A stretch of 27,181 bases of DNA. It comes from Myxococcales bacterium (GTDB lineage: Bacteria > Myxococcota_A > Polyangia > Palsa-1104 > JAEUJZ01). Positions 8,900 to 24,410 of this stretch are shown piece by piece. The DNA is taken from assembly GCA_016794505.1 (NCBI GenBank), contig JAEUJZ010000076.1, positions 192,001 through 219,181 on the forward strand, given 5' to 3'. Below the pieces are notes generated by a model. That model was not told the origin of the DNA. It saw only the letters and a list, made by a program, of their open reading frames with translations, and ran no database searches. A program made the position numbers and the translations under genes. Position 1 is the first letter of the stretch; the number at the start of each line of letters is the position of its first letter.

Positions 8900-8913
8900 C
8901 GAGGTCTTCGCCC

Positions 8914-9513
8914 ATGTCGCTGTCCGCTGTTTCGTCCGCTCAAGAAGTCGAGGCGCGCTTGCACGAAACCGGAGCCTTGCTGCACGGTCACTTTCTTTTG
9001 AGCTCGGGCCTGCACTCCGATCAATACATTCAGTGCGCACGCTTGCTGTCGTATCCACAGCACGCCGAGTTCGCCGGCAAGGCCCTGGCCGCAGCCTGTC
9101 GCGAGCGTGGACTCCAGCCGATCGACGTCGTGTTGGGACCGGCACTCGGCGGCATCGTGATCGCGCATGAGGTTGCTCGCGCACTGGGGGTACGGGCGCT
9201 GTTTGCCGAACGGGAAGCCGGCGCGCTGACCCTGCGCCGCGGCTTTGCGATGTCGCCTGGTGAACGCGTGCTGATTGTCGAAGACGTCATCACCACAGGG
9301 GGCTCTGCCGTCGAGACCGCCACCCTGGCGCAAGCGCACGGCGCGCGGATCGCAGGCTACGCCGCAATCGTAGAGCGCGGCAGCGACCATGGCTTGCAGC
9401 CGCTGTGCGCACTGTGGCGTGTGCGACCGCAGGTCTTCGCAGCCGAAGCCTGCCCCCTGTGCCAAGCCGGCAGCCCGGCCATCAAGCCCGGCTCGCGCGG
9501 ACCCAAGCCGTAG
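8914..9513 (+). CDS. pyrE: Orotate phosphoribosyltransferase
   Basis: LIVEDVITTGGS is the PRPP-binding motif of type-I PRTases, with OPRT-like length and context. I chose the ATG at 8914 (MSLSAVSS...), which follows GAGG 9 nt upstream. The ORF-track start at 8845 lacks an RBS. Confidence 0.88.
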   Translation: MSLSAVSSAQEVEARLHETGALLHGHFLLSSGLHSDQYIQCARLLSYPQHAEFAGKALAAACRERGLQPIDVVLGPALGGIVIAHEVARALGVRALFAEREAGALTLRRGFAMSPGERVLIVEDVITTGGSAVETATLAQAHGARIAGYAAIVERGSDHGLQPLCALWRVRPQVFAAEACPLCQAGSPAIKPGSRGPKP

Positions 9514-9599
9514 CGCGCGTTGACCCACAGCTTCCCCATCGGTCGCACGGACGAAGCGCAGCCCCCCGCTCGGCTAGAACACTGCTCGGAATCGGGACC

Positions 9600-9845
9600 C
9601 TATTGATTGCCTGCCGCGGGCCCGCGTATGCCCTGCAGGATCCACAGCGAGCCGTTGATGAGGTCTCGACGTGTAGCAGTGTCGGCCACGATCACATCCA
9701 GTGGACTGTCCGCACCGCCCAGCAGCTGGCCAACTGCCACCCAGTTTGGCGCAGGCCCCAGCGCGTAGTGCCGACGGCTCACCATGTTCGGATTATCCCC
9801 ACTTACCAAGCTCAGCGCCTTCCGCTGCCGATGCAACCCCACCAC
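9600..9845 (-). pseudogene. Short ORF or fragment carrying FG-GAP/Ca-binding-like motifs (DLNKDGRADVV upstream of a GTG start); possible remnant of an FG-GAP repeat gene
   Basis: The reverse-complement translation reads ...AADLNKDGRADVVGLHRQ...VIVADTATRRDLINGSLWIL, which is the Dx[DN]xDGxxD pattern of FG-GAP/VCBS blades. It is only ~80-100 aa, has no signal peptide, and sits inside a 650-bp gap. Confidence 0.3.
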
Positions 9846-10171
9846 ATCCGCCCGCCCATCTTTGTTTAGGTCCGCTGCAAGAACCCTTCGGCAAGACGTC
9901 GTGTTCGGCTTAATTCATGATGCTTTGTGCAGTGCGGTGAAGCGCTCGGGCATGCATGTTTGGACTCCCACTTGATGTACTCACGACGAGCACACAGACC
10001 CCGTGTCGGCGAAAACATGCCGGGTGCGGCAGCGCAACGAATGGAATCTAGGGCGCCACCCAATCGACATGGAAAACGCATCTCCGGCGATTCCGGTCGG
10101 AACGTACTGGCAGTTGTCCGCTTTCCTTCAGTCCGGTAGACCAACGTGCAGGCCAATGGGCCCATTGCGCC

Positions 10172-10946
10172 TTACAGGAACATGCCTCCTGAGATCTCGA
10201 TGCGCTGGCCGTTGATCCAGCGGTTTTCGTCCGACAGCAGCGAGGCCACGGCGGCGCCGATGTCGTCGGGCACGCCCACACGACCCAGTGCCGTCTGTCC
10301 CGCGATAAAGGCGTTTAGCTGCGGGTTGTCGCGCACCTGGCCCCCGCCGAAGTCGGTTTCGATCGCACCGGGGGCGACGGTGTTGACGGCGATGTGCCGG
10401 CTGCCTAGCTCTTTGGCCAGATAGCGCGACAGGACCTCGATCGCGCCCTTCATCGCGGCATAGGCGGCATACCCTGGCATCGCGAAACGAGCCAAGCCGC
10501 TCGACAGATTGACGATGCGTCCACCATCGGCAAGAAGCGGCAGCAGGGCCTGGGTCAGGAAGAAGGGGCCCTTGAAGTGAACATTCATCAGCTCATCGAA
10601 CTGCGCTTCGCTAGTCTGCGCGAAAAGCGCGTGGTGACCGAGGCCCGCATTGTTGACCAGAAAGTCCAGTTGTTCGCGTCCCAGCGTGGTGCGCAGCGCC
10701 TGCCGCAAGGACGTGACGAAGCCTGCAAACGACGCGACATCGCCGACATCAAGCGGCAGCACTACGGCTCGCCGCCCCAACGCCTCGACTGCGGCGACCA
10801 CGGCATCGGCATCGGCCTGGGCGCGACGATAGGTGAACACGACATCAGCGCCGCGCTTGGCAAGGTGCAGCACGGTGCTCTTGCCCAGTCCGCGACTGCC
10901 GCCTGTGACCAGAGCAATCTTGGGGAACTCCGATGAACTCGACATA
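10172..10946 (-). CDS. Short-chain dehydrogenase/reductase (SDR) family oxidoreductase
   Basis: The N-terminus reads KIALVTGGSRGLGKS, a TGxxxGxG Rossmann motif, and the length and pattern are SDR-like. I prefer the second ATG at 10946, because AAGGAG lies 6 nt upstream. The ORF track starts at 10963. Confidence 0.88.
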
Positions 10947-11042
10947 TGAGGCTCCTTTTGCATGTGTTTTCGACGGCAGACGCGCTTCGCAGGCCCGCCA
11001 TGACAAGCAGTCTATTGTTCTTCATTGCTGCCATAAACCAGG

Positions 11043-11072
11043 AAGAATTGATTTCACTGTTCAAGAATTGAT
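11043..11072. promoter_or_regulatory. Candidate LysR-type operator in the SDR/LysR divergent intergenic region
   Basis: A TTGA-N9-TCAA dyad sits at 11047-11063, matching the T-N11-A architecture. The 10-bp direct repeat aagaattgat occurs at 11043-11052 and 11063-11072, two helical turns apart. Confidence 0.35.
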
Positions 11073-11084
11073 AACAATAGGCTG

Positions 11085-12020
11085 ATGATGAAGTCCGTGG
11101 ATGCCATGCGGGTGTTCGCGCGCGTTGCCGAGCTGGCCAGCTTTACGCTGGCCGCCGACAGCCTGGGCCAGCCCAAGGCCAGCGTCTCGCTGGCTGTGCA
11201 GCGACTGGAAAGCGAGCTCGGCACGCGGCTTCTGCACCGCACGACGCGCCGTGTGCAGCTCACGCAGGATGGGCAGGTGTTCTATGAGCGCTGCCGCGAT
11301 CTGCTGGTCGATCTCGATGAGCTTTACAACCTGTTTCGCAACGACGGGCAGGCGCTTACCGGCCGCCTGCGCGTCGATATGCCCGTGGGGGTGGCGCGCG
11401 ATGTCGTGCTGCCGCACCTGCCGGCATTCCTTTCGGCCCATCCCGCGTTAGAGCTAGAGCTTTCAAGCACTGATCGTCGCGTCGATCTGATCCGCGAGGG
11501 CTTCGACTGCGTGCTGCGCGTCGGCACGCTCGGCGAATCGAGCCTGATCGCCCGGCCGTTGGGGCAGTACCGCATGATCAACTGCGCCAGCCGCAAATAC
11601 CTGGCTCGCTGCGGTCGGCCGCGGCGTCCCGCCGATCTGCACAAGCACCGCATGATTCATTACGCTGCGACGCTCGGCAGCCGCGACAGCGGCTTTGAGT
11701 ACGTCGACCCAAAGAACCCTGAGCGCATCGTCACGGTCTCTGTGCCGGCAGCGCTCACCGTCAATAACTCGGATGCCTACTACGGCGCCTGCGTGGCCGG
11801 ACTCGGCATCATCCAGGTACCAGAGCCCGGCGCACGCGCGGCCCTCAAGGCCGGTCGGCTCGTCGAGATCCTGCCGCGATATCGCGCTGCACCGATGCCG
11901 GTCACGCTGCTTTACGCCAACCGCCGACACCTGCCGCGCCGCGTCCAAATGTTCATGAGCTGGCTGGAAGCGCTCTTGCGCCCACGCTTGACCAAGCTCT
12001 CGGCCGCCGCAATCGGCTAG
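11085..12020 (+). CDS. LysR-family transcriptional regulator
   Basis: An N-terminal wHTH (MRVFARVAELASFTLAADSLGQPKASVSLAVQRLESELGTRLLHRTTRRVQLTQDG) is followed by a LysR substrate-binding domain. The gene is divergent from the SDR gene. Confidence 0.9.
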   Translation: MMKSVDAMRVFARVAELASFTLAADSLGQPKASVSLAVQRLESELGTRLLHRTTRRVQLTQDGQVFYERCRDLLVDLDELYNLFRNDGQALTGRLRVDMPVGVARDVVLPHLPAFLSAHPALELELSSTDRRVDLIREGFDCVLRVGTLGESSLIARPLGQYRMINCASRKYLARCGRPRRPADLHKHRMIHYAATLGSRDSGFEYVDPKNPERIVTVSVPAALTVNNSDAYYGACVAGLGIIQVPEPGARAALKAGRLVEILPRYRAAPMPVTLLYANRRHLPRRVQMFMSWLEALLRPRLTKLSAAAIG

Positions 12021-12258
12021 GACTGCGCGCTTGCGTCAGGCAGCGATGGGAGGATCCTGCGCAGGTCGCTGGGCAGCGACAATTTTGTCCGGCTCGTCGT
12101 CAAATTCCTGAAGGGTTCTCGCAGAATAGAGTGCCCGCCATGCGCGAGTCCGACCGCAGTCCACCCGACTGGTATCCGCGTCGAGCCTTCATCCGAGCTT
12201 TGCGCCGCGTGGGCCCGCCGTGCTGCGCGTGGCATGTCCGTTGCTGTGGCATACGAAA

Positions 12259-13167
12259 ATGAGACCATCCCTGCGATTCATCGCCTGCCTTCTTTTGGTG
12301 TCCGTGGTTGGTACGTCGTCCGCAAGGGCAGCGGGCATCCAAGCAGAGACGCACGCAAACGAGCAGCGCGTGTCGTTTGCCCTAGGTGACGCCGGCATCC
12401 TGGTAGTCGATGACGGCGCACCCGCCGCCGAGCGCGTGCTGGCCACGCTGCCACTTGCTGCGCCCCTTTTTGATCTGCTGTTCATCGACAATCGCTTGTA
12501 TGTGGCGCGCGGTCCGGCTGGCATCACGGTGATCGATGTCAGCGATCACATGCGGCCCGTTGAGCTGTTCAGCTTCGGCAGCAACCACGCGCCCATCAAG
12601 CTCAGTCGTCAGGGCTCTTCGCTGGTGGCTGTCGACGATCGTGGCAACAAGGTGGCCTATGATCTAAGCCGGCGCGATACACCGCGACTCGTGCCGCCGC
12701 CGCAGCCGCCCGCACCGCCGGGAGAGAGAGCAGCATTCGCTTCGTTCCATCCAGCGGATGATCCGCCAAGGGACGTAGCGGTTCGTTTCATCGCGGCGGG
12801 TTCATCGCTGTTGGCAAGCAGTCTGATCGTCGCGGCCGTTGGCGCACTGCTGTTTGCTGCGAGCGACCAAGCCATCGCGCAGGATCGGCAGCGCCAGCAA
12901 GAACGGCAAGCTGCGTGCAAGCAGCGCATGGAGAGCGTCTGCGGCTGGTTTTATTTCTCGCTCGCCGGTCTGCCTGAGCTAGCGGCCGGCTACATCGTCG
13001 TGGGCCATGCCGTCCTGCGCAGCGCCGTGTCGATTCCGATCCTGGCGGTAGGACTGCACAAGCTTCGGCGATCTGCGACGGTGCGCCCGGTCGTGGCTTT
13101 CTTACCAGGCGCGCCTGCTACAACGCCGGGCGTGTTGGTCGGCGCGAACCTGGGGCTGCGCTTCTGA
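12259..13167 (+). CDS. Hypothetical secreted/membrane protein with LVIVD-like beta-strand repeats, a Pro-rich linker and two C-terminal TM helices
   Basis: A signal peptide (MRPSLRFIACLLLVSVVGTSSARA) is followed by the repeats ILVVDDGAP, ITVIDVSD and LVAVDDRGN, then PPPQPPAPP and two hydrophobic segments. No family was recognised beyond the repeat pattern. Confidence 0.55.
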   Translation: MRPSLRFIACLLLVSVVGTSSARAAGIQAETHANEQRVSFALGDAGILVVDDGAPAAERVLATLPLAAPLFDLLFIDNRLYVARGPAGITVIDVSDHMRPVELFSFGSNHAPIKLSRQGSSLVAVDDRGNKVAYDLSRRDTPRLVPPPQPPAPPGERAAFASFHPADDPPRDVAVRFIAAGSSLLASSLIVAAVGALLFAASDQAIAQDRQRQQERQAACKQRMESVCGWFYFSLAGLPELAAGYIVVGHAVLRSAVSIPILAVGLHKLRRSATVRPVVAFLPGAPATTPGVLVGANLGLRF

Positions 13168-13386
13168 GCCATCCTGCCATCGCTGCAACGTCGACTAAAG
13201 GGCGCTGAACTGTTGCCGCAACAGCCCCGCATCGGACGAAACGTTCGCGCCTGCCCGACGCGGCTTTTGGTGCAGCGACCTCGATGAAGACGGCGCGATC
13301 TGGCCAGGCATCGCTGCATGCGGCGGTCAGGCCTGAAACGCAGGCTGCAAAGGGGCCAAACAGGGACCGCAGAGTCACCGCGGGCT

Positions 13387-15166
13387 TCAGCGCGAGGATG
13401 CATGGGCTACGCAGTCCTCGGCCGTGGGCACGCGGGGGATGACGATGTTCGTGTTGTTGGGATCGAACTGCGCCGGCAAATGGCAGCGAAGGAACGCCGC
13501 AAGCTGCTCGGGCCCGCGCGCTTCGGGCGAGACGTCCCATATGCGCGCCGTCTTGTCCCAGCTCGCGGTGACGATGCGCCGACCATCCGGGCTATACATC
13601 GCGCCCACCACGCTGCCCCCGTGGCCCATGAGAACGGCCTTGGGAGCGCCTGCGGCGTGGACTGTACTCGCGAGCAAGTCAGGCAGTGCCGCATCCTTGC
13701 TGCCTTCCGCCTGGGCTCGATGCAGCCAGAGCAGTCCTTCACTGGGGTTGCCGCGCTCAAAGACCAGCTGCCTGCCGCGCTCCACATACTCCAGGTGCGC
13801 AGCGCCGCCCAGTGATCGAACAGCGCCTCGTGCGTGACCTCGGCCAGAGGCTCAGCCCCGTCGCCGCTCAGCGTCACCAGGCGCGCCTGTTCGGTGGCAA
13901 ATTTTCGCAGCACCCCGAGCACACGCGCTTCCGTCTCGCCCCGCCCGCACAGCTCAGAAATCGGAGCCCGACGCCGCGTGTCGCGCGTGCCTTCGCCGAG
14001 CCGCACCAAGCGCACCAGCGCCCGCTGCGCCGTCGCTTGCTTGCTCGGATCGAGCTGGTTGCAGATCGCCTGCGCCTTGCCGGCCAGCGCACCGCCGACG
14101 CCGCCCATTTTTCGCAGCGTCTCGCCGGGCTCTTGGCCTGCGTGCATGCCCTCCCAAATGTTCGTCAGCGCAAACTCAAGCAGCGGCAGCGTGCCTTCGT
14201 TGCCCCAAGCCTGATCGAGCAGCAGCTCGACCGTCGCATCGTCGATCGGCTGGCCGGCTTGTGCGGCGGGCTCTGTGATGGCCTGGCGCAGCTCGTCGCG
14301 GTTCATCGCCGTCACGATGACTTCCTGCGCGCCAATCAAGCGATGGAGCTCGACGTGATGGCGGTGCGTCTCACCCAGGAAGTCGCTGCGCAGCGTCAGC
14401 ACGATCGACACATGACGGCTGCGCGCGGCGGCGGCGTGAAGCAGGACACCGATGAAGGCCTCGCGCTCGTCCTTGTGGCTGCACAGCGTGTAGACCTCTT
14501 CAAGCTGATCGACCAACACGACAAACGGCGACCGCTCGACGCCGGGCCGACTCGCCGCCCACTGGCTGAGCCCATCGAATTCGCCGCGCCCATTGGGCTT
14601 GCGCAGAAAGTCGGCCAGGTCCCGCTGCGCCGATAGCTCGGCTGCCGTCGCCGGATTGTGGCCCGGTGGCAAGAGCGCCATCGCCAGCACGCCGACCGGA
14701 TGTTCCCCGGCTTGAACGCGATGGACTGCAGCGGATCCGGCCCCGGAATCGGCGCGGTCTGAAGCTCGGCCAAAAGCCCCGCTCGCGCCACCGACGACTT
14801 GCCCGAGCCCGACGGCCCCAGCACCGCCAAAAGCCGCGTCGATCCCGCCTGCTCGTACAGCGCCTTGAAGCGCTGCCAAAGTCGCTCGGTCAGCTCGTCG
14901 CGGCCAAAGAACAGGTCGGTCTCGTCGACTTGGAACGCCGACAGCCCACGATACGGATTCTTCGCGGCCTGGCCCGCTGCCGACCGAGGCGACAAGAGCA
15001 GCCGCTTGTGCCGCGCAGCGCGTCGCGGATTCCTTTTCGAAAGGGCCGCGACCAGCTCTTCGCCGTCGACGATCTGCCGTTTATGGGCTCGGCTGCGTCC
15101 CGTGGCTTCGCAGCGTTCACCTCGTCCGCCCCATCGGCCTGACTGCTGTGTCCGCTCTCTGGTCAT
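13387..15166 (-). pseudogene. Degraded STAND (NACHT-like) NTPase with a single C-terminal WD40 repeat, disrupted by two frameshifts and truncated
   Basis: Three consecutive reading frames carry successive parts of one protein. Frame 1 (ORF 14396..15232) has NPYRGLSAFQVDETDLFFGRDELTERL...LAVLGPSGSGKSSVARAGLLAEL, i.e. Walker A. Frame 2 (ORF 13407..14879) has HRVQAGEHPVGVLAMALLPPGHNP...VVLVDQLEE (Walker B-like)...LPLLEFALTNIWE...EALFDHWAALRTW. Frame 3 (ORF 13387..13785) has ERGRQLVFERGN...LMGHGGSVVGAMYSPDGRRIVTASWDKTARIWDV, one WD40 repeat, then a stop. The frame switches fall near 14725-14740 and near 13790. Confidence 0.6.
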
Positions 15167-15725
15167 TCTTGCAAAATATCTGCATTCATATTTGAATATT
15201 AAAATCAAACCCATAATTAGTTTACTTGCCATACATCACCTGCAATTCACGATGCGCCATGTAGTAATTTACATAAATATAATATCTCCAATAAAACTCT
15301 ATCGACTCTACACGGGATCCACTATCTGCATTTGACAGGAAAAACCAAGCGGCTCCACAGGGTCTCATTTCGGCAATGATCTCGCGACTTCGCTCTAGAG
15401 CGTTTGCTCCATCCGCCGACATTACCGCCAGGGAGGTCCACCGACAGAGTGGCTTGCCTTGCAATGTTTGCACAGATAAACAAATCATCCACATTGATTA
15501 TTGAAACGGATAGGCATGTCACTAATAACATTCTTCATACATTCCAGATAAATCAGGATTATTTTCAATGATAAATTAACGTGTGAATCGACACAAAAAA
15601 CAGAACCCAGCGGCCGCGTACGACCGCAGGCCATGCCGAGCTTGGGGCGCGCACGGCCGATACGAAAAAAGGATTTTGATACTGTCTAAAACAAGCTACG
15701 ATAGGTTCCTATGAGGAGTATTGGC

Positions 15726-16265
15726 ATGCGACATGGTGAGATCCTGCCTGTTGTATTTTCGCTGAGTATGACCGCTTGCTTTGGGATGTTTGGGGACTCA
15801 AGCAGAGACGAGGCGACCCCAGGGCGAAGCCGCTTTCCCATCAGACCACTGCCGCGGGTCGCGATGGAAAACCCCGCGCTGCTCGATGCCGCCATTCGGG
15901 GGCTAAACCCGTCGGATAAGGAATATCAGCTCTTCCATGCCCACATCGCGAGCCAGCCAAGGTACATGCGGCACCAGATGTCCGGGCAGCTTATAGCCCG
16001 ATGTTACGACTTCGCCCTCGTCTACCACACCCGCACGACGCCGCCGGCCTGCCACTGGAGCGTCTTTCGACTCTGCCAAGAACACCTGGGCAACGGCACC
16101 TTTGCCGAAGAGCTGACCGTCCCCCGCCTTTCAATCGCCATCGCCTCCGGGGGAATCGAGTGCAACAGCCCCGAATTGCCGCCAGGGGTTGCTCCGAAGC
16201 AGCCTCCTCCCGCGGCGACGGCACCCGCGGCGACGGCACCCGCGGCGACGGCACCGCCGCAGTAG
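15726..16265 (+). CDS. Small secreted or lipoprotein-like hypothetical protein with a C-terminal (ATAPA)3 repeat
   Basis: GAGGAG lies 6 nt upstream of the ATG at 15726 (the ORF track starts at 15711). The N-terminus MRHGEILPVVFSLSMTAC is a hydrophobic h-region ending in Cys, a non-canonical lipobox. The C-terminus reads AATAPAATAPAATAPPQ. Confidence 0.5.
   Translation: MRHGEILPVVFSLSMTACFGMFGDSSRDEATPGRSRFPIRPLPRVAMENPALLDAAIRGLNPSDKEYQLFHAHIASQPRYMRHQMSGQLIARCYDFALVYHTRTTPPACHWSVFRLCQEHLGNGTFAEELTVPRLSIAIASGGIECNSPELPPGVAPKQPPPAATAPAATAPAATAPPQ
16212..16256. repeat. 15-bp perfect or near-perfect tandem repeat x3 (gcggcgacggcaccc) inside the 3' end of the CDS above
   Basis: Direct reading: gcggcgacggcaccc gcggcgacggcaccc gcggcgacggcaccg. 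It encodes the ATAPA repeats. Confidence 0.9.
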
Positions 16266-16294
16266 GCTCAGGCACTGGCAGGCCGACCCGCCTT

Positions 16295-16369
16295 CATCCC
16301 CTGCTCCGTAAGCACGCTGCATCCCTTGCTCTGTAAGTACGCTGCATCCCTTGCTCCGTAAGCACGGCC
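16295..16369. repeat. 25-bp tandem repeat x3 in the non-coding region downstream of the lipoprotein gene
   Basis: The copies are catcccctgctccgtaagcacgctg / catcccttgctctgtaagtacgctg / catcccttgctccgtaagcacggcc, with few mismatches. Confidence 0.85.
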
Positions 16370-16378
16370 GCTTCTTTT

Positions 16379-16407
16379 CTGTCTGCTCTGTCGAGACTCG
16401 CAGACAG
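16379..16407. terminator. Stem-loop (8-bp stem ctgtctgc/gcagacag, 13-nt loop) between convergent genes; no U-tract
   Basis: Seen directly in the sequence. It lies between the 3' ends of the + lipoprotein gene and the - FG-GAP gene. It lacks a T-run, so it is at best a non-canonical terminator. Confidence 0.25.
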
Positions 16408-16550
16408 CCAAGCGCTTCGCGACCGCTCCATTGCCACATAAAATCGCGCTGCCGTTCCGCGTGTTCCGCGCCGCGCAACGACGAATCCCGGTCCTGACCT
16501 GGCCCGGCGCCGCGCGCTCTGTGGGTGCAGCTCGCAGAGGCTTAATTCGG

Positions 16551-18737
16551 TCAGGCGTCCGCTGCGACGAGCTGGTCGGTCGGCATGGGCAGGGGGGTGC
16601 TGGCGGACTGAAGAAGGGTCGTGCCGCTGTCTGGAAGCTGCAGCCAGATGAGCTGGCTTGTCGCTTGGGTGTTGAACACAGCGACGAGCTCGCGCTTGCC
16701 TTGGCCGCGGAAGTCGCCGACGGCGAAGTCGCTCAACGTCGCTCCGGGCAGGGATGCAAGCGAGAACGAAAACTGGCTTCCCCCCAGGGGCCGATCCGTG
16801 GCGCCCAGATACGCGCGTAGCTGCTGTGGCTCGCCAAGAATCAGATCCGTCAGGCCGTCGCCGTTGAGATCTGCGAGTCGAATCATGCGACTCGCCGGAG
16901 GCAAAAACCACGGCAGGAAGTTCGCGTCGGGCGTTACGAATGCGCTCTGAAAAGAACAGGGCTGCGTCTTCACGCCGAGTAGGAACCACAGCTTGCCATC
17001 GTCGCTGCGCGCCACAATGTCTGGAGCGCCATCGTTGTCGATGTCGCCGACTTCTAGCTGTCCGACGGGATCGGGCACCACAGCGAGCTGGCGCGTTCCG
17101 GGTTGGCCGCTCAGCGTGACCAGCTCGACGGCGCGGTTGGCGTTGGCTCCGATGATTTGTGTGGGCTGATCCGCGCACTGGATCGTGGTGGCCGTTACAA
17201 ACGGCATCGATACCGTCTGCGAGCTGGGGCAGCTAAACCCTTGGTTGCCATCGGGGCCGCAGCGCAGAACCAGGCTGGCGCCGCCGCTTCCAGCCACGGC
17301 AAAGTCGCTGCTGCCCGCCGCGGCAAACGAGCCCGAAAGCACGATGGCGTCGGGGTTGTTCGTGCCGTCCCGACGGAAATCAAACGGCAGGGTAAAGCTT
17401 GCGGTGGCGCCGCCCTGATTGCGGGCGATCGACAGCGTTGCGCCCTCGCTGCTGTCATTGAAGACGACGATGTCATCGCGCGAGCTGCCCACGGCAAAGT
17501 GCCCGGTCACCACGTGCTCGCCGATCAAGCTGCGGTTCGCGATGCGCGCGGGCGCGCTGGCCCAGCCGCCGCCGCCGGCATAGACCGAAAGAAAGCCATA
17601 GGCATGCAGCACCACCAAGTCGTCGAGCTGGTTGGCAACCGAGCCGCTAAGCAAGCGCCCGACCGCAATCTTTCCTTTGTTGGGCGGCCGGTAATCCAAG
17701 TCATACGTGGCAAGATTGATAACGTCTTTGTTTATGACGTTGCTCTCAACAGATTGAAAAATTTCAAGATCTTGCGGGCCGCTGACAACGACTGCGTCGT
17801 AATTGGTGGGATTCCTAAAATGACCGACTACAACGTCCGATGCTCTGTTGCTAACCACAAATGACATGATCGTGGGAAGATAATTTGCGGCAAATCGAAT
17901 CTTTCCTAAACGACCATCCGCGCCACTGCCAGAGGAATACGATATCAATATGTCTTGCGTATTCACCGTGGCATTTCTATATGCAGGAACCGCCATGGAA
18001 GTTGGAACATAACCAGAAAATTCGGCATCTGAGATGATCGATCTTGCGCGCTCATATCCCATTGGCATTTTATTTGCCAGTATATCAATTCCATTTGAAA
18101 TATAAGCAACAGCAATATCTTTTTTGTTATCGCCATTGAAATCACCAATGGCTATGCCGCGCGGTTCGGATACCAGCGCAGGGACAGCGGGGGCAGCTTG
18201 CTGATTGCCCATGATCAGATCGACGTAGGCGTTCGTACCAGAGAGCACCACGGCGACGTCGTCCTTGCCATCGTCGTCGATATCAGCGACAGCGGCCATC
18301 TCTGGATTTCGCCCAGGCTGACTGTAGTTACCAAAACTAATAACTGGAGAACCTGCCGATGGGTTCATAATTTTCGTATATCTCTTTTTTCCCATCACAA
18401 AAATGTCATCAAGACCATTGCCATCAAAATCTCCGCGATAGAGAAGTCCCTGTTCTGAAGTCATTATGTCGTTGATTTTTTCAATCGACAACAGAGCTGG
18501 CGCAATCAGCTCCACTGGACTATATGGCAGTGTTCCACCATCGCTACCACCATCAACCATATCGGCAATATCGGCCATGACGCAGCGATGCAATGACTCA
18601 TGACAACGCATCCCAGCCATGCACCTTCCATCATTCGGCTCACAGTAATCAGGATCTTGCTGACTGAGGCCACCGAATAAATGTTCACAAGCCACTGCCA
18701 GAAAACACGAAAACACGAATAACGTTCGATACCGCAT
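16551..18737 (-). CDS. Large secreted protein or lipoprotein with multiple FG-GAP (integrin-alpha-type beta-propeller) repeats and an N-terminal Cys-rich module
   Basis: The signal peptide is MRYRTLFVFSCFLAVAC. A Cys-rich stretch follows: CEPNDGRCMAGMRCHESLHRC. At least 6 Ca-binding FG-GAP motifs are present: GDFDGNGLDDIFV, ADIDDDGKDDVAVV, GDFNGDNKKDIAVA, GDIDNDGAPDIVA, ADLNGDGLTDLIL and GDFRGQGKRELVAV. AGGAGG lies 5 nt upstream of the ATG. The 5' third of the gene has visibly lower GC. Confidence 0.85.
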   Translation of the reverse strand: MRYRTLFVFSCFLAVACEHLFGGLSQQDPDYCEPNDGRCMAGMRCHESLHRCVMADIADMVDGGSDGGTLPYSPVELIAPALLSIEKINDIMTSEQGLLYRGDFDGNGLDDIFVMGKKRYTKIMNPSAGSPVISFGNYSQPGRNPEMAAVADIDDDGKDDVAVVLSGTNAYVDLIMGNQQAAPAVPALVSEPRGIAIGDFNGDNKKDIAVAYISNGIDILANKMPMGYERARSIISDAEFSGYVPTSMAVPAYRNATVNTQDILISYSSGSGADGRLGKIRFAANYLPTIMSFVVSNRASDVVVGHFRNPTNYDAVVVSGPQDLEIFQSVESNVINKDVINLATYDLDYRPPNKGKIAVGRLLSGSVANQLDDLVVLHAYGFLSVYAGGGGWASAPARIANRSLIGEHVVTGHFAVGSSRDDIVVFNDSSEGATLSIARNQGGATASFTLPFDFRRDGTNNPDAIVLSGSFAAAGSSDFAVAGSGGASLVLRCGPDGNQGFSCPSSQTVSMPFVTATTIQCADQPTQIIGANANRAVELVTLSGQPGTRQLAVVPDPVGQLEVGDIDNDGAPDIVARSDDGKLWFLLGVKTQPCSFQSAFVTPDANFLPWFLPPASRMIRLADLNGDGLTDLILGEPQQLRAYLGATDRPLGGSQFSFSLASLPGATLSDFAVGDFRGQGKRELVAVFNTQATSQLIWLQLPDSGTTLLQSASTPLPMPTDQLVAADA

Positions 18738-18762
18738 AACTCCTCCTACTGCATACGTGTTC

Positions 18763-20400
18763 TTATTTCATCGGGCCAGGAATGCCAACAAGGACACCGC
18801 CAGCGATCGCCACCCCCAGCCCGACGCTCAGCGTGATGGCACCGGGGATCGTGGTGACATAGCGGCGCTCGCAGGTGCCACCATCCACCAGCGGTGGCTG
18901 AACACACTGGTCGTGAATGCTGAGCATGGCGACGCCAAAGCCGGCGGTCACAAGCCCGCCAAGCATCGCCACGCTGCCCAGTGCCAGACGCCACGTCGGG
19001 CGCGGCTGCTGACGCGGCAGAAGCGGCGGCGGGGGCGGCGGGATCAAGGCGGCGGGGGCTGGCTCTGCTTCCAAGAGGCGAATGTCGAGCGTGCGCTTTT
19101 CGCCCGCGCGCAGAGTCAAGCGCTGTTCGTCAGAGGCATAGCCGGGCTTGTTCACCACGATGTGATGCTCGCCGGCAAACACCGCCTTGCCATAGCGACA
19201 CACGGGAAGCGCGGTTCCGTCGAGCACCAGCGCGGCATCGGCAGGCTCGCAGGTGATGGCAAGCTCGGCGCGCGGGCGACCGCTGCCCTGCTCATAGACG
19301 CGGCTCACCATGGCAAGCAGGCTGGCCCCTGCCTGTTCGGCGACAAGGCCGGCCGTGCGCAGCTCCTCCATCGCGGCGGCTTGTTCCACGACGGTGTCGA
19401 TAAGTTGGACGCGCATGTGCAGGGTCTCTTTTTCGATCTCGCCCCGCACGTGCAAGATCGCTTCGGCTTCGACCTGCTTGGCTAGCTCGATCTGGCAGGC
19501 TGTTTCTTGCAGACAGTCCCCCAGCTTGTGACTTGTCGACGGCAGCAACGAGACGGCCAGCTCACTTCCCAGCGGAGACACGCGTCGCGACAGCAAGGCC
19601 TTTTCGATCGACTGCCGCAGCCGCGCTTGCAGCTCAGGGGACAGGCCGGAAAAGTCCGAGACCACCAGCACACCCGGCAGCGTGCTTTGAAGCAGCGTGC
19701 GGCTCGACACATCGCTGCGCAGCTCGCCGAGACGACCGGCGGGGATCTGCACCGTGTCTTCGATGCGCTTCTGATGAAGCTCCAGCACGATCGAGTGCTC
19801 ACGCGGGCTCACAAGCAGCGGCAGCGCCAGCGGCAGCACCCCCACAAGACGGCCGTCGACATAGACCCGCGTGCCTCGCTCGCCCAGGATGTTGAGGGTT
19901 CCGGCGAGCGGGCGCCGCTGGCTTAGGACCTGCTCGGCCTCTTTGATCTCGGGCGACACCCCGCCTGGGCTTGTGCCGGTGCGGGCCTGCGCTTCGCTCT
20001 CGTTCTCTAGATCGGGGTCGGCCAGATAGCGACGCATCAAGTCGTGGGCGTCGAGCTCACGCTGTTCGGCCAGCGCCAAGCGTCCCAGATCATGCAGCCC
20101 CTGCGGACTGGGCGCCGCCGCATACGCCGCGCTCAACAGACGAGCCGCATCGGCAAACCGCGCGGCCTGCAGCGCCACAAGCCCCTCACTGCGCAGGCGA
20201 CTGGCGTCATCCTTTTGGGCCGAAGACGCGCTGGCCCGGCTGCTGTGCGTTTTGCTTCGGCTCTGCGCCGCGCTCGGCACAAGACCGCTCAGCAGCAGAA
20301 CCAAACACAGCCAGCCTCGGGAACGTGTCCTTCGTCGCGGCTGCGATTGCGCCACCAGCTTTACCGCTCTCTGGTCGGCGCGCTGGGCCCCCCTGCGCAC
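18763..20400 (-). CDS. PEGA-domain membrane protein (signal peptide, helical/TPR-like region, two PEGA-like beta-sandwich domains, poly-Pro linker, C-terminal TM helices)
   Basis: Read from the translation: a leader WLCLVLLLSGLVPSAAQ; PEGA-like GTRVYVDGRLVGVLPL...SPREHSIVLEL; a second PEGA-like region CEPADAALVLDGTALPVCRYGKAVFAGEHHIVVNKPGYASDEQRLTLRAGEKRTLDIRL; a PPPPPPLLP linker; and two hydrophobic C-terminal segments. The stop lies 25 nt upstream of the FG-GAP gene start, so the two genes are probably co-transcribed. Confidence 0.8.
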   Translation of the reverse strand: MRRGAQRADQRAVKLVAQSQPRRRTRSRGWLCLVLLLSGLVPSAAQSRSKTHSSRASASSAQKDDASRLRSEGLVALQAARFADAARLLSAAYAAAPSPQGLHDLGRLALAEQRELDAHDLMRRYLADPDLENESEAQARTGTSPGGVSPEIKEAEQVLSQRRPLAGTLNILGERGTRVYVDGRLVGVLPLALPLLVSPREHSIVLELHQKRIEDTVQIPAGRLGELRSDVSSRTLLQSTLPGVLVVSDFSGLSPELQARLRQSIEKALLSRRVSPLGSELAVSLLPSTSHKLGDCLQETACQIELAKQVEAEAILHVRGEIEKETLHMRVQLIDTVVEQAAAMEELRTAGLVAEQAGASLLAMVSRVYEQGSGRPRAELAITCEPADAALVLDGTALPVCRYGKAVFAGEHHIVVNKPGYASDEQRLTLRAGEKRTLDIRLLEAEPAPAALIPPPPPPLLPRQQPRPTWRLALGSVAMLGGLVTAGFGVAMLSIHDQCVQPPLVDGGTCERRYVTTIPGAITLSVGLGVAIAGGVLVGIPGPMK

Positions 20401-20518
20401 GCGCCCATGATAGCAGCGCCCTCAGACGACGTGTCGAACCAATTGCGCGCGGGTTCTGCGCCGCTTGCAGCAAAGTGAGCCAGCCGGAGCTAGGGATGTT
20501 TTTATATAGTGATCTCTC

Positions 20519-22840
20519 GTGGACAGAGCTGTCTTGCCCACACCAAAGCGGGTCGTATGCTTGGCCGCGCTGTGTCTTTGGCTCGTGGCCATGGGTCACG
20601 CGCACAGCCACACAAAGGCGGAATCTGCAGCCGGACCGCCTCTGCGGGCCCAGCAAATCGTGCGCTATGCCGGCGCCTGGGAATATCGCTTTGGCGACTC
20701 GCCCCGCGATGCAGCCGGCGAGCTTCTGTGGACTCGACGAGCGACGTCGGCTGCGTCCGAGTGGCGCCCCATTGCCCTGCCGAACAGCCCACCGGGACAT
20801 GGCGATCATCGCTTCTTGTGGCTGCGCAGTCAGCTTGTCGGCCCGCCCATCGCAGATCCGGCCTCGCGGCCGGCGCTGTTCCTTTTGGTCGTCGACCAGA
20901 TCTTTGAAGCCTATGTCGATGGCAAGCTGGTCTATCGCTTCGGTGTTCTCGACGGCGATGGACCGCACGTTCGACAGTTTCTCGGCTACAAACCGCACTA
21001 CATTCCGCTTGATCCGGCGTACCAGGGCAAGACGCTGGCCCTGCGCATCTATTCCGACCACATCAACATCGGCGTGGTCGGAGAGCCCTATCTGGGCAGC
21101 CAGCTGGCCTTAACCAAGGCCACCGTCGTGCGCGGGCAGAGCAAGTTCATCACAGGCGCCATCCTGATCGTCGTCGGGCTCGCGGCGCTGGGGCTGTGGC
21201 TCGTGCAGCGCGAGGCGCAGACGCTGCACTACGCCGGCTTTGCCATCACCGTCGGCATCTGGAGCCTCTGCCAGTCGCAGAGCCGCATCCTATTTCTCGA
21301 CAACGCCCTTTTCTGGGTCCACATCGAGATGTGGGCGCTGTATCTGATTCCCGGTTTCTTGGTGGGCTATCTGATGAGCTTCCTCGGGCCGGGACCCTTT
21401 CAGCTCAACCTGCGCTTGATGCAGCTGTTTTTTCTGTACGCCATCGGGGCCGCGCTGCTGGTGTTTCTCGGCGGTGTGCCACTGATGGCCACCTGGCTGC
21501 CAGCCGTGCTGCTCATGATGTCGATGGCGATCTACATCACCGGCATGACCGTGCTCGCCATCTTGCAGGGCCACGTCGAAGCGCGGATCTATTTCGCGGG
21601 TCAGTGCGTCGCCGTGCTGTTCTTTCTGTACGACACCCTGGCGTCGATGGGCATCTTGCCGCGCCACGACACGACGACCAGCCACATCGGCATCGGGGCG
21701 TTTGTCGTGTCGATGGGTGTCTTGGCCGCGCGCCGCTTCATCTTGTTGCAGCGCGAGCACCGCGTCACGGCCAGCGAGCTGCAAAAGAGAGTGCAAGAGG
21801 CGCAGCAGAAAAGCAGCGAGCTGCGCATGCTCAACGACGAGCTCATGCGCCAGATCGATCAGCGCTCGCGCCGCTTGCTCGATGCGCTGCTGGCTCGCAT
21901 CGACGAAGACAGCGGCGACCCCACGGCCGGCATTCAGCCGCTTGCCGCGGGCAGCTTGCTCAATGAAGCCTATCGCGTCGTGCGTCCCATCGGTGCCGGT
22001 GGCTTCGGTTCCGTCTATGAAGTCGAGCGCATCGCTGACGGGCAGCACCTGGCCGCCAAGCTCATCGCGGGCTCGGCCAACCGCGGCGCTCTTCTGCGCT
22101 TTGGACGCGAAGCCCAGCTCTTATCGCGCCTGCATCACCCCAACCTGGTCAGCATCTTCGACGTCGATGTCACCGCCGATTCCCGCCTGTTCATCATCAT
22201 GGAGCTCGTGCAAGGCGTCACCCTGCGCGACGTACGCCAGCGCTATGGTGACCCCCGCTGGGCCCTACCCATCCTGCAGCAGATCGCCGCCAGCCTCGCC
22301 GCCGTCCACGAGCGCGGCATCGTGCATCGCGACTTGAAACCCGCGAACATTCTCTTGACGGCGTCCGCGGTCGACGAGCCGCCGCGCGTCAAGCTGGTCG
22401 ACTTTGGCATCTCGGTCCTGGCCCGCGAAGATGGACGGCCCGAGCCCACGCCGACGCCGTCCAAGCGCAGCGAGGCCACGAGCTTGCTGCCCGATGCCAC
22501 CAGCACAGGCGTCTTGGTCGGCACGCCCGCTTATATGGCGCCCGAGCTCTGGGTTGGCTCGCGCTTGGCGCAGGTCTCGTCCGACATCTTCAGCTTTGGC
22601 GTCATCGCCTATGAGCTCCTGACGCGCAAGATGCCGTACGAGAGCCCCGCCGTGCGTTCCATGCTGCGCAGCGAGCGCCTGCCCATTCCCGCCGAGCTTC
22701 GCACCTGCGCCGAGCTCGATCCCGCGCTCACCCAGCTCTTCGAGCGCTGCTTGGGACTCGAACCCAGCGAGCGCCCCACCGCCGCCGAGCTGGCCCACGC
22801 TCTCTCGCAGGCTCTGTCCGCCCCGCCGCCTGCGGCCTAG
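20519..22840 (+). CDS. 7TMR-DISM-type receptor (extracellular 7TMR-DISMED2-like domain plus 7 TM helices) fused to a C-terminal Ser/Thr protein kinase
   Basis: The N-terminal extracellular region is ~190 aa (LWLRSQLVG...LFLLVVDQIFEAYVDGKLVYRFG...RIYSDHINIGVVGEPYLGSQ). Seven hydrophobic helices follow, spanning ~200 aa, then a coiled-coil (ELQKRVQEAQQKSSELRMLNDELMRQ). The Hanks kinase motifs are IGAGGFGSVY, AAK, HRDLKPANILL, DFG and GTPAYMAPE. The start is GTG at 20519, with TTG at 20534 as an alternative. Confidence 0.88.
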   Translation: MDRAVLPTPKRVVCLAALCLWLVAMGHAHSHTKAESAAGPPLRAQQIVRYAGAWEYRFGDSPRDAAGELLWTRRATSAASEWRPIALPNSPPGHGDHRFLWLRSQLVGPPIADPASRPALFLLVVDQIFEAYVDGKLVYRFGVLDGDGPHVRQFLGYKPHYIPLDPAYQGKTLALRIYSDHINIGVVGEPYLGSQLALTKATVVRGQSKFITGAILIVVGLAALGLWLVQREAQTLHYAGFAITVGIWSLCQSQSRILFLDNALFWVHIEMWALYLIPGFLVGYLMSFLGPGPFQLNLRLMQLFFLYAIGAALLVFLGGVPLMATWLPAVLLMMSMAIYITGMTVLAILQGHVEARIYFAGQCVAVLFFLYDTLASMGILPRHDTTTSHIGIGAFVVSMGVLAARRFILLQREHRVTASELQKRVQEAQQKSSELRMLNDELMRQIDQRSRRLLDALLARIDEDSGDPTAGIQPLAAGSLLNEAYRVVRPIGAGGFGSVYEVERIADGQHLAAKLIAGSANRGALLRFGREAQLLSRLHHPNLVSIFDVDVTADSRLFIIMELVQGVTLRDVRQRYGDPRWALPILQQIAASLAAVHERGIVHRDLKPANILLTASAVDEPPRVKLVDFGISVLAREDGRPEPTPTPSKRSEATSLLPDATSTGVLVGTPAYMAPELWVGSRLAQVSSDIFSFGVIAYELLTRKMPYESPAVRSMLRSERLPIPAELRTCAELDPALTQLFERCLGLEPSERPTAAELAHALSQALSAPPPAA

Positions 22841-22888
22841 GTTCCTGCGATCCCCCCTGTCCAGCGCCCTGCCCCTTCGGCCGCGGTC

Positions 22889-24310
22889 TTAGGCTCGCGC
22901 GCTGCGTCCGCGAAACGTCGTCGGGTCGATGCCGTATTGATCGAGCCAGCGGCGGAACTGACGGCGCGAATAGCCCGATGCCGCTTCGATGTGGGTCAGG
23001 TTGCCGCGATGCGCGACCAGAAGCGCGACCAGCTGATCTTTTTCCGGGATCGGATCGCCGTGCTGCCAGCTTCGCGGGCGCGGCGCAGCCGAGCGCGGCG
23101 GCGTGCTCACAGCGGGTGCCGGCGACAGCGCAACGGCCACCCCGCGTGCGAGCGCTGGCGTCAGCGCCTGCAGGACTTCTTCCTGTACATCCACCGCATC
23201 CGCACCGGCATCGGCCAGCCGCCGCACCACATGACCTAGCTCGCGGATGTTGCGCGGAAAGTCATAGCGCAGAAGCGCCGCCACCAGCTTCGGCGACAGC
23301 ACCAGCGCGCCCCCGACATACTTCGCGGCCAAAAGCAGGATGTCTTCGCGCCGCTCGCGCAGCGGAGGCAGCGAAATCGTCTCCGCCGCCAGGCGCGCAT
23401 ACAAGTCCTCGCGAAACTGGCCCTCGTGCAGTGCCGCCGACAGGTCGCGGTTGGTCGCCGCGACGATGCGCACCGAGCGCCGGATCGGTCGCTGGCTGCC
23501 GACCGCAAACACCTCGCCGGTTTCCAGCACCCGCAAGAGCTTGGGCTGTAGCTCGCGCGGCAGATCCCCGACTTCATCGAGAAACAGCGTGCCGCCCTCG
23601 GCCTCGCCAAACAGCCCGACGTGCGGCACCGCCCCCGTAAAGGCCCCGCGCGCAACGCCAAACAGCGTCGCTTCCGCCAGCGAAGCCGGGATCGCCGCGC
23701 AGTTCACCGCCACAAGCGGCCCCGTGCGTCCGCTCGCGCTGTGGATCGCCTGCGCCGTCACGTCCTTGCCGGTCCCCGACTCGCCCGTGATCAAGACCGA
23801 GCGCTCGCGTCCCGCCACCCGCGCGATCGCCGCGCGCAGCCGACAGGCCGCCTGCGACACGCCGATCAGCGTCGGAATCTCGGCATCGGCAAGCGCCACC
23901 GGCTCGCGCCGAACGATCAGAAACGAATCGCCGAGCCGCAGCACATCGCCGTCCACCACCGCCTGCGCCTGCCCGTTCGCCAGGCGCGCTCCGTTCAGAA
24001 ACGAGCCATTGCGGCTGCCCAGATCCTCGACGAGGACCTCGGCGCCCTGTCTGTACAGCCGGGCGTGCTCGCGCGATACCCGCTCGTCTTCGATCGAAAG
24101 CCAGCTCTCGTCCGGCTCGCCGCGACGCCGCCCCAGGCCCAGCGCCCGGCTCGGCTGCCACGTCTGCGCCGCCCCATCGCTGATGCCGCGCCCCCCAACA
24201 TAGACCACGCGCAGCCGCAAGGCCTCGCCAGCCGTCCGCCCTCGTCCCTCGGAGCGCGAGCCATCCCCCGTCGGACCACTCGTCTCTAGCTCGGCAAGCT
24301 CTGGCCCCAT
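22889..24310 (-). CDS. Sigma-54-dependent transcriptional activator (enhancer-binding protein) with an N-terminal FHA domain and a C-terminal Fis-type HTH
   Basis: The FHA-like N-terminus reads LGRRRGEPDESWLSIEDERVSREHARLYRQGAEVLVEDLGSRNGSFLNG. The AAA+ sigma-54 interaction domain carries GESGTGKDV (Walker A), the GAFTGA loop and FLDEVGDL (Walker B). The C-terminal HTH reads VALLVAHRGNLTHIEAASGYSRRQFRRWL. I chose the ATG at 24310; the ORF track uses GTG at 24340. Confidence 0.9.
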   Translation of the reverse strand: MGPELAELETSGPTGDGSRSEGRGRTAGEALRLRVVYVGGRGISDGAAQTWQPSRALGLGRRRGEPDESWLSIEDERVSREHARLYRQGAEVLVEDLGSRNGSFLNGARLANGQAQAVVDGDVLRLGDSFLIVRREPVALADAEIPTLIGVSQAACRLRAAIARVAGRERSVLITGESGTGKDVTAQAIHSASGRTGPLVAVNCAAIPASLAEATLFGVARGAFTGAVPHVGLFGEAEGGTLFLDEVGDLPRELQPKLLRVLETGEVFAVGSQRPIRRSVRIVAATNRDLSAALHEGQFREDLYARLAAETISLPPLRERREDILLLAAKYVGGALVLSPKLVAALLRYDFPRNIRELGHVVRRLADAGADAVDVQEEVLQALTPALARGVAVALSPAPAVSTPPRSAAPRPRSWQHGDPIPEKDQLVALLVAHRGNLTHIEAASGYSRRQFRRWLDQYGIDPTTFRGRSARA

Positions 24311-24410
24311 CGAGCCACTGGATGTCCCTTTTCGCACCACCCTTGCATGCTACGGACACCGCCGAAAAAAAGACAAGCGCCCCGCCCATCCTCGCCGTCC
24401 TCTGGGGCGA

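Follow-up and report, generated by a model that had tools for sequence, protein, structure and literature searches.

Mobile elements that carry a serine recombinase and sit inside a coding sequence have been described in several bacteria, among them skin in sigK and SPbeta in spsM of Bacillus subtilis and the Anabaena fdxN element with XisF (PMC5025042, PMC4191935, PMC5499854). Here we describe a locus of this kind in a 27,181-nt stretch of DNA (about 65% G+C) from an uncultured myxobacterium; "the window" means this whole stretch, to which coordinates refer unless another contig is named. The window holds a pair of genes, for a PEGA-domain protein and for a predicted FG-GAP repeat lipoprotein, and the second is almost certainly split in two by a 6,678-bp insert lying within the calcium-motif codons of its repeat 13 (AAD/LNKDG, the slash marking the junction), judging from comparison with related contigs. 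The likeness to skin, SPbeta and the fdxN element lies in the precise insertion within a coding sequence, in the uninterrupted gene of a relative, in the restoration of the reading frame when the insert is removed, and in the serine recombinase found at the element end in related elements (loci L002 and L071). The window differs from these systems in that its recombinase is degraded, that the host is an uncultured myxobacterium, with no known developmental link or directionality factor, and that insertion takes place in the coding sequence of a repeated protein motif, various repeats and various FG-GAP genes being hit accordingly (repeat 11 in L002, and also L071 and L026).

The individual parts of the locus belong to known domain families (FG-GAP, PEGA, the LpoB/PelC-like fold and 7TMR-DISM), and their combination has no NCBIfam model or solved relative; a full-text literature search that combined the PEGA domain with FG-GAP or lipoprotein did not bring it up either. 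A first-pass annotation of the window had reported a two-gene operon, and both open reading frames (ORFs) are present on the minus strand, at 18763-20400 (545 aa, GTG start) and then at 16551-18737 (728 aa, ATG start). What it observed was real yet incomplete, and its interpretation holds in part; what is chiefly new is that a site-specific element interrupts the FG-GAP gene. The 728-aa ORF had been taken for a whole gene, the interruption at its end having been missed. In the family alignment, two relatives, P0002 (813 aa, 86% identical) and P0004 (805 aa), run about 85 residues beyond it; after the residues QLIAAD the intact relatives continue with LNKDGRADVV, while the window ORF ends with AADA and a stop codon. 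The pieces of the locus are arranged as follows, L003 being the contig that encodes P0002 and L166 an independent contig from another sample.

18763-20400, minus strand: PEGA-family gene, 545 aa (ORF; Pfam PEGA; AlphaFold2 (AF2) model; Foldseek against the PDB; 25-sequence alignment A3)
16551-18737, minus strand: 5' part of the FG-GAP lipoprotein gene, 727 native codons plus an element-supplied GCC TGA (Ala, stop), with about 12.5 of about 14 FG-GAP-like repeats
16557-16565, minus strand: left copy of the 9-bp direct repeat GCAGCGGAC (codons A-A-D of repeat 13; junction comparison, blastn)
9879-16556, no strand assigned: insertion of 6,678 bp, absent from L003 (92-93% identical) and read as a decayed serine-recombinase integrative element (blastn, Pfam, L166 junction)
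9870-9878, minus strand: right copy of the 9-bp direct repeat GCAGCGGAC (junction comparison, blastn)
9600-9869, minus strand: displaced 3' end of the FG-GAP gene, 89 codons plus stop (LNKDGRADVV...GNQ), open and in frame, with the rest of repeat 13 and repeat 14
16556/16557 and 9878/9879: junctions of the insert, attL and attR respectively
Reconstructed empty site, joining gene body to tail: ...GTCGCAGCGGAC/CTAAACAAAGATGG
Predicted circular junction of the insert: ...GGGTTCTTGCAGCGGAC/GCCTGACCGAATTAAGCC

With L003 as the reference, blastn of the window gave two blocks, 1599-9878 matching L003 14040-5762 at 93% identity and 16557-22335 matching L003 5770-1 at 91.7%. The blocks are colinear and overlap by 9 bp in L003, and colinearity is broken only by positions 9879-16556, for which no match was found in L003 or in any other fetched locus. 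The uninterrupted sequence, GCCGCGGAC/CTAAACAAAGATGGG, reads A-A-D/L-N-K-D-G, a canonical FG-GAP calcium motif, and removing 9879-16556 in silico restored both the frame and the DLNKDGRAD motif exactly. On the minus strand, 9600-9869 translates without stops (LNKDGRADVVGLHRQ...GNQ, then the stop codon), and tblastn aligns it with the tail of P0002 over 95 aa at 91.6% identity. In both intact relatives the FG-GAP gene is followed by a convergent pyrE, a position that matches that of the tail piece in the window. The short FG-GAP-like fragment at 9600-9845, which had been read as a sign of former paralogues, is the gene's own 3' end, 92% identical to the intact tail. Assembly chimerism was considered as a source of the junction and rejected because L166, which was assembled independently and encodes a protein 99% identical, has the identical junction for 102 nt into the insert. 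The L166 contig itself ends 96 nt past the element junction (L166 9941-10037), which could reflect strain heterogeneity at the insertion or a repeat-induced assembly break.

The ratio of non-synonymous to synonymous divergence (dN/dS) between the window and L003 was 0.24 for the FG-GAP body, 0.23 for the PEGA gene and 0.13 for the detached tail (6 non-synonymous and 14 synonymous changes), so relaxed selection was not seen in the tail by this comparison. The low value is to be expected if the insertion is recent or if the tail is still in use, two cases that these sequence data do not separate. As long forms of the protein also occur in distant subfamilies, for example in L049, the long form is ancestral. 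The insertion removes the last 1.5 blades or so, and the head of the protein in the window strain is probably impaired or altered, unless a recombinase supplied in trans excises the element.

The insert probably belongs, in decayed form, to a family of integrative elements with serine recombinases, which would use the DNA encoding an FG-GAP calcium loop as their attachment site. Two features at its left end point to this class.

16517-16556, minus strand: 40-nt element-end motif GCCTGACCGAATTAAGCCTCTGCGAGCTGCACCCAC, which gives the truncated ORF its Ala and stop (alignment A2, nhmmer)
16383-16421, minus strand: remnant of a serine-recombinase N-terminal catalytic motif, REALGCLRVSTEQ, where L002 has RRAIGYVRVSTDM equally far from its junction

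The 40-nt motif was matched by nhmmer in L001, L002, L004, L005, L014 and L026 (twice), and with L071 it is present in seven other loci. In all seven it comes directly after a GAC codon near the 3' end of an FG-GAP gene. L001, L004, L005 and L014 have it at the repeat-13 site, as in the window; in L002 it stands at repeat 11 (LLTD/), in L026 at the end of a partner gene encoding TIG and FG-GAP domains, and in L071 within another FG-GAP gene, cut at AAGD/. Both L002 and L071 have an intact serine recombinase gene whose start codon lies about 55 nt past the junction, the closest NCBIfam models to that of L002 being CcrB and XisF. The remnant in the window covers about 13 codons and is identical to L002 at 28 of 36 nt, after which similarity is lost; no intact recombinase gene and no directionality factor were found in the insert. 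Interrupted and intact genes are interspersed in the FG-GAP family, which requires several independent integrations or some precise excisions. RNAalifold found no consensus structure for the junction motif across eight copies, which marks it as a sequence motif rather than a conserved hairpin. A metagenome motif scan returned six matches, only L071 being genuine and the other five, in low-G+C or unrelated contexts, amounting to about the number expected by chance by our estimate, and the ten matches in a scan of viral contigs were likewise at about the estimated chance level. A contig classed as viral in IMG/VR (L086, 4,247 nt) encodes two divergent serine recombinases at 422-2768, one of them 58% identical to that of L002; no clear motif copy was found beside the recombinase in L086, where the intervening sequence resembles the junction motif loosely.

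Other explanations of the junction were rejected by judgement and not with a dedicated tool. An integron attC site, group I or II introns, IS110 bridge-RNA elements, diversity-generating retroelements and shufflons were set aside because the end sequences are wrong, because there is no reverse transcriptase or DEDD transposase, because the insert is a multi-gene segment with genes in both orientations, and because the two gene pieces are in direct orientation.

By Pfam, the insert carries genes for a short-chain dehydrogenase/reductase (SDR), a LysR protein, a membrane protein and an nSTAND1 NTPase, the last one frameshifted, together with a small secreted ORF; PADLOC and NCBIfam gave weak P-loop matches at most for these ORFs and for the L026 element. 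The nSTAND1 gene (13387-15232, minus strand) lies in three overlapping frames, with the P-loop at 14396-15232, the core at 13407-14879 and a WD40-like tail at 13387-13785, and is either a pseudogene or broken by assembly errors. Between it and a divergent 184-aa secreted ORF, positions 15100-15700 are AT-rich (44-46% G+C) and hold two of the three sigma-70-like matches of the region scanned. At the right junction, a 99-aa ORF (9866-10165, minus strand) crosses into the gene tail in a different frame and stops at the TAA within CTAAAC of the FG-GAP tail. The L026 element is a 6,111-bp unit present as a tandem duplicate (L026 13094-21416), starting exactly at GAC/GCCTGACCGAATTACGCC at the stop of the TIG and FG-GAP partner gene. 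Its copies are 100% identical over the comparable 2,212 nt, and the unit contains a 1,530-aa ORF with no Pfam match and no recombinase; the repeat may have arisen by tandem integration or be an artefact of assembly.

The truncated ORF is an FG-GAP protein by sequence profiles, with FG-GAP_3 (PF13517) at E=5e-21 and 75.4 bits (cut-off 26.9) and FG-GAP (PF01839) at E=9e-15 and 54.6 bits (cut-off 22.1), both well above the Pfam thresholds. Five intact repeats of the 728-aa ORF have a D-x-[DN]-x-[DN]-G-x-x-D loop. Of the at least six calcium-binding blades claimed at first pass, three with strict Dx[DN]xDGxxD motifs (aa 152, 565 and 623) and two near-canonical ones (aa 103 and 199) are intact, and the insertion cuts through the sixth. 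A repeat profile detected eight repeats in the intact relative P0002, spaced so as to imply a total of about 14; the head is plausibly a tandem 7+7 propeller of about 14 repeats. The AF2 model of P0002 had a pLDDT of 61 and a pTM of 0.45, and Foldseek matched it to multi-propeller and tandem-propeller proteins at TM-scores of 0.2-0.3. Among PDB sequences, the FG-GAP regions of TcdB, YenB and ITFG2 were matched. The protein shares with FG-GAP/VCBS propeller proteins such as integrin alpha, TcdB/YenB and ITFG2 the above-threshold repeats and the D-x-[DN]-x-[DN]-G-x-x-D loops, and differs from them in being a predicted bacterial lipoprotein with an N-terminal four-Cys module, in having about 14 repeats rather than 7, and in being encoded by an interrupted gene with seven full-length relatives among 5.8 billion clustered proteins.

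The N-terminal region is one of the best-conserved parts of the family.

18582-18689, minus strand: lipobox Cys17, CEHLFG motif and C-x6-C-x5-C-x6-C module (aa 17-52), invariant columns in alignments A1 and A7

Lipoprotein signals follow a rule (PROSITE PS51257-type) of a basic N-terminus, a hydrophobic region and [LIVMFWSTAG](2)-[LIVMFYSTAGCQ]-[AGS]-C, with the Cys at position 15-35. The N-terminus of the FG-GAP protein, MRYRTLFVFSCFLAVAC, fits this rule with Cys17 as the lipid-bearing residue, and the product is accordingly a predicted lipoprotein. In the 10-sequence family alignment A1, C17, C32, C39, C45 and C52 are invariant, and the well-conserved segment reads C-E-x-L-F-G-x-L-S followed by C32-x6-C39-x5-C45-x6-C52; Ala16 is invariant within the FG-GAP orthogroup (A1) and Cys17 in both A1 and A7. 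The signal peptide followed by a four-Cys module noticed at first pass is therefore real and invariant, with a spacing other than that first given. The 5' third to half of the gene (17650-18737) is low in G+C: its first 900-1,100 nt or so have 42-56% G+C and a third-position G+C content (GC3) of 0.35-0.51, compared with a GC3 of 0.75-0.82 in the rest of the gene, in a genome of 65% G+C. This dip is also present in the FG-GAP orthologues of L001, L003, L004 and L005, most strongly in the first and third 300-nt bins, and persists in orthologues just 35-50% identical; synonymous divergence from L003 is 0.52 in the low-G+C half of the gene and 0.18 in the other half.

The upstream gene encodes a protein with a PEGA domain (PF08308, aa 379-442) at E=2.4e-7 and 31.0 bits, above the Pfam cut-off of 20.8. 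Its AF2 model, built with 25 homologues, has a mean pLDDT of 85 and starts with a short hydrophobic helix consistent with a cleaved signal peptide, followed by a helical TPR-like region (aa 54-159), a seven-strand beta-sandwich (aa 167-240, pLDDT >90), an alpha/beta domain resembling TolB-N, LpoB and PelC (aa 243-373), the Pfam PEGA sandwich (aa 377-441), a Pro-rich linker and a C-terminal transmembrane (TM) hairpin whose helices (469-494 and 517-539) coincide with hydropathy peaks. The poly-Pro spacer and TM anchors of the first-pass annotation are borne out by the two C-terminal helices, and of its two PEGA-like domains one is detected by Pfam and the second, the sandwich at aa 167-240, is seen in the AF2 model only. 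The TPR-like segment is helical in that model, although the TPR profile stayed below its cut-off (TPR_16, E=0.22, 12 bits against 32.7). A profile search of PDB sequences with this protein found no solved relative, and no NCBIfam model for its architecture was found. In Foldseek against the PDB, the central domain matched the TolB N-terminal domain, LpoB, PelC, FlgT and GNA1162 at E values of 6.5e-6 to 5e-3, with TM-scores normalised to the target of 0.5-0.6 for LpoB and PelC. Sequence identity to the LpoB/PelC fold is 9-15%, and here the domain lies between beta-sandwiches in a protein that is not itself a lipoprotein and for which neither a ring assembly nor a penicillin-binding protein partner is indicated. 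As in other PEGA proteins, including those fused to myxobacterial Ser/Thr kinases, there is one Pfam PEGA domain, here with a second structural one; unlike the kinase fusions, the protein is free-standing, has no kinase domain, and combines PEGA with the TolB-N/LpoB/PelC-like domain and a TM hairpin. The model thus shows a predicted secreted scaffold, in which two PEGA-type sandwiches flank the alpha/beta domain between a helical region and a Pro-rich linker with a two-helix anchor.

The stop codon of the PEGA gene and the ATG of the FG-GAP gene are 25 nt apart (18738-18762), a distance that had been given as lying between the PEGA gene and the ribosome-binding site, which is itself inside the gap.

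18742-18747, minus strand: ribosome-binding site AGGAGG, 4 nt before the FG-GAP ATG (sequence)

The terminator scan found no terminator-like site in this gap. The earlier suggestion that the two genes are co-transcribed is supported, and the pairing is conserved. In all eight non-redundant loci with FG-GAP orthologues (L001-L005, L009, L014 and L166) the PEGA gene immediately precedes the FG-GAP gene, 26-40 nt separating the two. The FG-GAP orthogroup comprises seven clusters of full-length relatives, and a third homology search with its profile found no new full-length members. The PEGA family, which the whole architecture of the protein sets apart as one of its own, is larger, with 762 representatives at E<=1e-30 among 1.84 billion; among the best 150 listed, most are 500-590 aa and matched end to end. 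A scan of 185,579 species genomes found 62 PEGA loci, all in uncultured metagenome-assembled genomes (MAGs) of Polyangia/Myxococcales or labelled Pseudomonadota/Deltaproteobacteria, and several MAGs have from four to about eleven PEGA paralogues each.

Partners were counted for the 64 PEGA genes with enough downstream sequence. An FG-GAP protein is the partner in 26 of them, and in 41 the next gene encodes a lipoprotein with a lipobox Cys, the motif C-[EDSQG]-x-[LI]-[WFY] and Cys residues, so that the conservation of the pair extends to the family level; the full four-Cys pattern is present in 33 of these 41 module-bearing partners. In alignment A7, made of 25 N-termini from 25 loci, C17, C32 and C39 are invariant and the C-terminal parts are widely different, comprising FG-GAP arrays (720-830 aa), proteins that combine TIG with FG-GAP (about 500-560 aa), and further types of about 290, 400-440 and 710-770 aa in which Pfam finds nothing significant. 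Because the N-terminal Cys module stays constant despite these variable C-termini, we infer that it is the prime candidate for a scaffold-contacting surface. Tandem arrays of PEGA, partner, PEGA and partner genes occur in L034, L052 and L062. Four loci (L007, L026, L029 and L030) have a second, shorter FG-GAP gene of about 350-410 aa, of one subfamily, divergent and upstream of the PEGA gene; in L007 it adjoins genes for an extracytoplasmic function (ECF) sigma factor and a caspase-like peptidase.

Next to the pair lie the genes of a possible signalling route.

20519-22840, plus strand: receptor Ser/Thr kinase, 7TMR-DISM_7TM plus Pkinase, 773 aa, divergent from the pair (Pfam; orthologues in L001, L003 and L166)
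22889-24340, minus strand: FHA plus sigma-54 activator gene, convergent with the kinase gene (Pfam; also in L166)

The separately encoded 7TM receptor kinase named as a neighbour at first pass is confirmed by Pfam matches to 7TMR-DISM_7TM (PF07695; E=1e-14, 55 bits, cut-off 29) and Pkinase (E=9e-46, 157 bits). The kinase resembles Myxococcota 7TMR-DISM receptor kinases with FHA/sigma-54 activators in combining 7TMR-DISM_7TM with Pkinase and in having the gene for an FHA-type bacterial enhancer-binding protein (FHA-bEBP) next to it, and differs in that Pfam detected no DISMED ectodomain in aa 1-210 and that the link to the PEGA/FG-GAP pair is one of adjacency only. The kinase gene and the convergent activator gene (20519-24340) have the same order in L166, an arrangement that suggests a pathway from the kinase to the FHA-bEBP, the activator being a possible phospho-Thr-dependent output regulator of the kinase. 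The wider neighbourhood is a purine/pyrimidine biosynthesis cluster (purM, purF, purL, purQ, purC, pyrD, pyrF and pyrE, by Pfam). Promoter and terminator scans gave matches at chance level, a sigma-54 promoter search of the window gave 19 matches against 17 expected by chance with none convincing upstream of the operon, and an Rfam scan of the window and four loci gave zero matches.

The divergent 7TMR-DISM kinase is kept in the closest relatives only (L001, L003 and L166). Across the 49 PEGA-paralogue loci with enough upstream sequence, receptor kinases of two architectures directly flank 12, which by our estimate exceeds what chance would place beside one family. In 11 of the 49, the kinase gene is immediately upstream and co-directional (L013, L016, L019, L021, L027, L028, L032, L043, L062 and, with two loci, L066). 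These upstream kinases have 900-1,400 aa, with an N-terminal kinase domain, one TM segment after it and HEAT repeats. The long HEAT repeats are presumably periplasmic, with weak TPR_2 matches by Pfam in two of six checked, and most of the listed C-termini end in ...GRCREVTEWMLPGTNVVTINGAQTFVKVRPGE...C, which is PEGA-like by eye only. A Pkinase-PEGA fusion is also encoded near the pair in L004-type loci, at a distance of about 6 kb. The split sensor or co-receptor arrangement proposed earlier is partly supported by flanking kinases of two architectures in 12 of 49 loci, but most loci lack a kinase.

On balance, we consider the locus best explained as a conserved scaffold/lipoprotein unit that feeds receptor kinases and whose second gene is split by the element; a signalling role of the pair, taken by itself, is put forward only tentatively. 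The scaffold would be anchored in the membrane by its TM hairpin with its domains in the periplasm, and would hold the lipoprotein through the Cys-knot adaptor in an envelope complex. The lipoprotein head would bind a ligand, as an extracytoplasmic ligand-binding unit or co-receptor, and the complex would modulate a receptor Ser/Thr kinase; in the window this would be the 7TMR-DISM kinase, whose likely output is the FHA/sigma-54 activator. In the window strain, the head would act without its last 1.5 or so blades.

Several points weigh against this explanation or parts of it. The proposed interaction of scaffold and lipoprotein is inferred only from the N-terminal module that the partners share and from the conserved adjacency of the genes. 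No kinase adjoins about three quarters of the paralogous loci, nor does one adjoin L002, L004 and L005, which belong to the closest orthogroup beyond the near relatives as regards the 7TMR-DISM kinase; kinase coupling may for these reasons be incidental. The reading of the head as a 14-blade tandem propeller is plausible, being drawn from repeat spacing and Foldseek matches of low TM-score to a poor model (pLDDT 61). The assignment of the element to its class is based on the shared end motif and the 13-residue remnant, weakly supported in pairwise comparison (E=0.05), in an insert that carries no intact recombinase. Finally, most family members are short forms kept under selection, and since the distant short forms keep their bodies of 720-727 aa under clear constraint in the family alignment, truncated proteins may still work.

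The strongest alternative, possible though somewhat doubtful, is that the pair forms a stand-alone adhesion or surface-layer module, in which the PEGA scaffold displays a calcium-binding propeller that binds polysaccharide, prey or matrix, the neighbouring kinase being coincidental. FG-GAP and TIG heads are typical of adhesins, and the expansion of paralogues with variable heads fits diversified binding specificities. The lack of an adjacent kinase at most paralogous loci agrees with this, as do the unrelated neighbours in L002, L004 and L005, which are gas-vesicle genes, an RR-GerE (response regulator) gene and a lyase gene. However, the direct flanking of 12 of 49 loci by receptor kinases of two architectures would be hard to obtain by chance for one family.

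An unlikely reading is that the element acts as a reversible switch, a recombinase supplied in trans excising it across the 9-bp repeat and thereby toggling between a short and a long (14-repeat) propeller. Precedents exist in the serine-recombinase elements of sigK and spsM (PMC5025042, PMC4191935, PMC5499854), and it would fit the exact restoration of frame and DLNKDGRAD on deletion of 9879-16556, the separated tail that shows no decay (dN/dS of 0.13 against 0.24 for the gene body), the related elements at similar sites in several lineages with intact genes interspersed, and the break of the L166 contig 96 nt after the junction. Nevertheless, the recombinase gene in the window is a remnant, no directionality factor was identified, and the low dN/dS of the tail is equally well explained by a recent insertion. 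Distant short orthologues keep the 40-nt motif only, and tblastn found no displaced tails within the fetched flanks of the other short-form loci, which looks like fixed truncation. The reading that the 728-aa ORF is a native, complete gene and 9600-9845 the leftover of a former paralogue can be dismissed, for although seven of the ten family members share this endpoint, it is contradicted by the blastn comparison with L003, the fragment is 92% identical to the tail of an 86%-identical intact orthologue at the same pyrE-adjacent position, the junction lies inside a calcium motif, and the sequence after it is a mobile-element end found beside recombinase genes elsewhere.

The scaffold/lipoprotein unit, then, is part of a corrected gene model, with one gene of the 813-aa type split by a mobile element in place of a 728-aa protein and an orphan 81-aa ORF. 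It also defines an uncharacterised, multi-copy family of gene pairs, seen in the genome scan only in uncultured myxobacterial MAGs and recognisable by a PEGA scaffold and a lipoprotein with the motif C-[EDS]-x-[LI]-[WFY]...C-x6-C-x5-C-x6-C. As a far more speculative extension, improbable as it stands, the family might be a diversified, undescribed envelope sensing system of uncultured Polyangia, composed of a scaffold, a Cys-knot lipoprotein with interchangeable heads and often a kinase, whose sensors are switched off, and possibly on, by serine-recombinase elements that target the FG-GAP calcium motif. An integrative-element family that uses a repeated-motif coding sequence as its attachment site would have many potential landing sites per genome, which is relevant to the evolution of repeat proteins, and its recombinases may be of interest as tools. 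The recurrent linkage to receptor kinases, in turn, offers a concrete hypothesis for how some myxobacterial Ser/Thr kinases may receive extracytoplasmic input.

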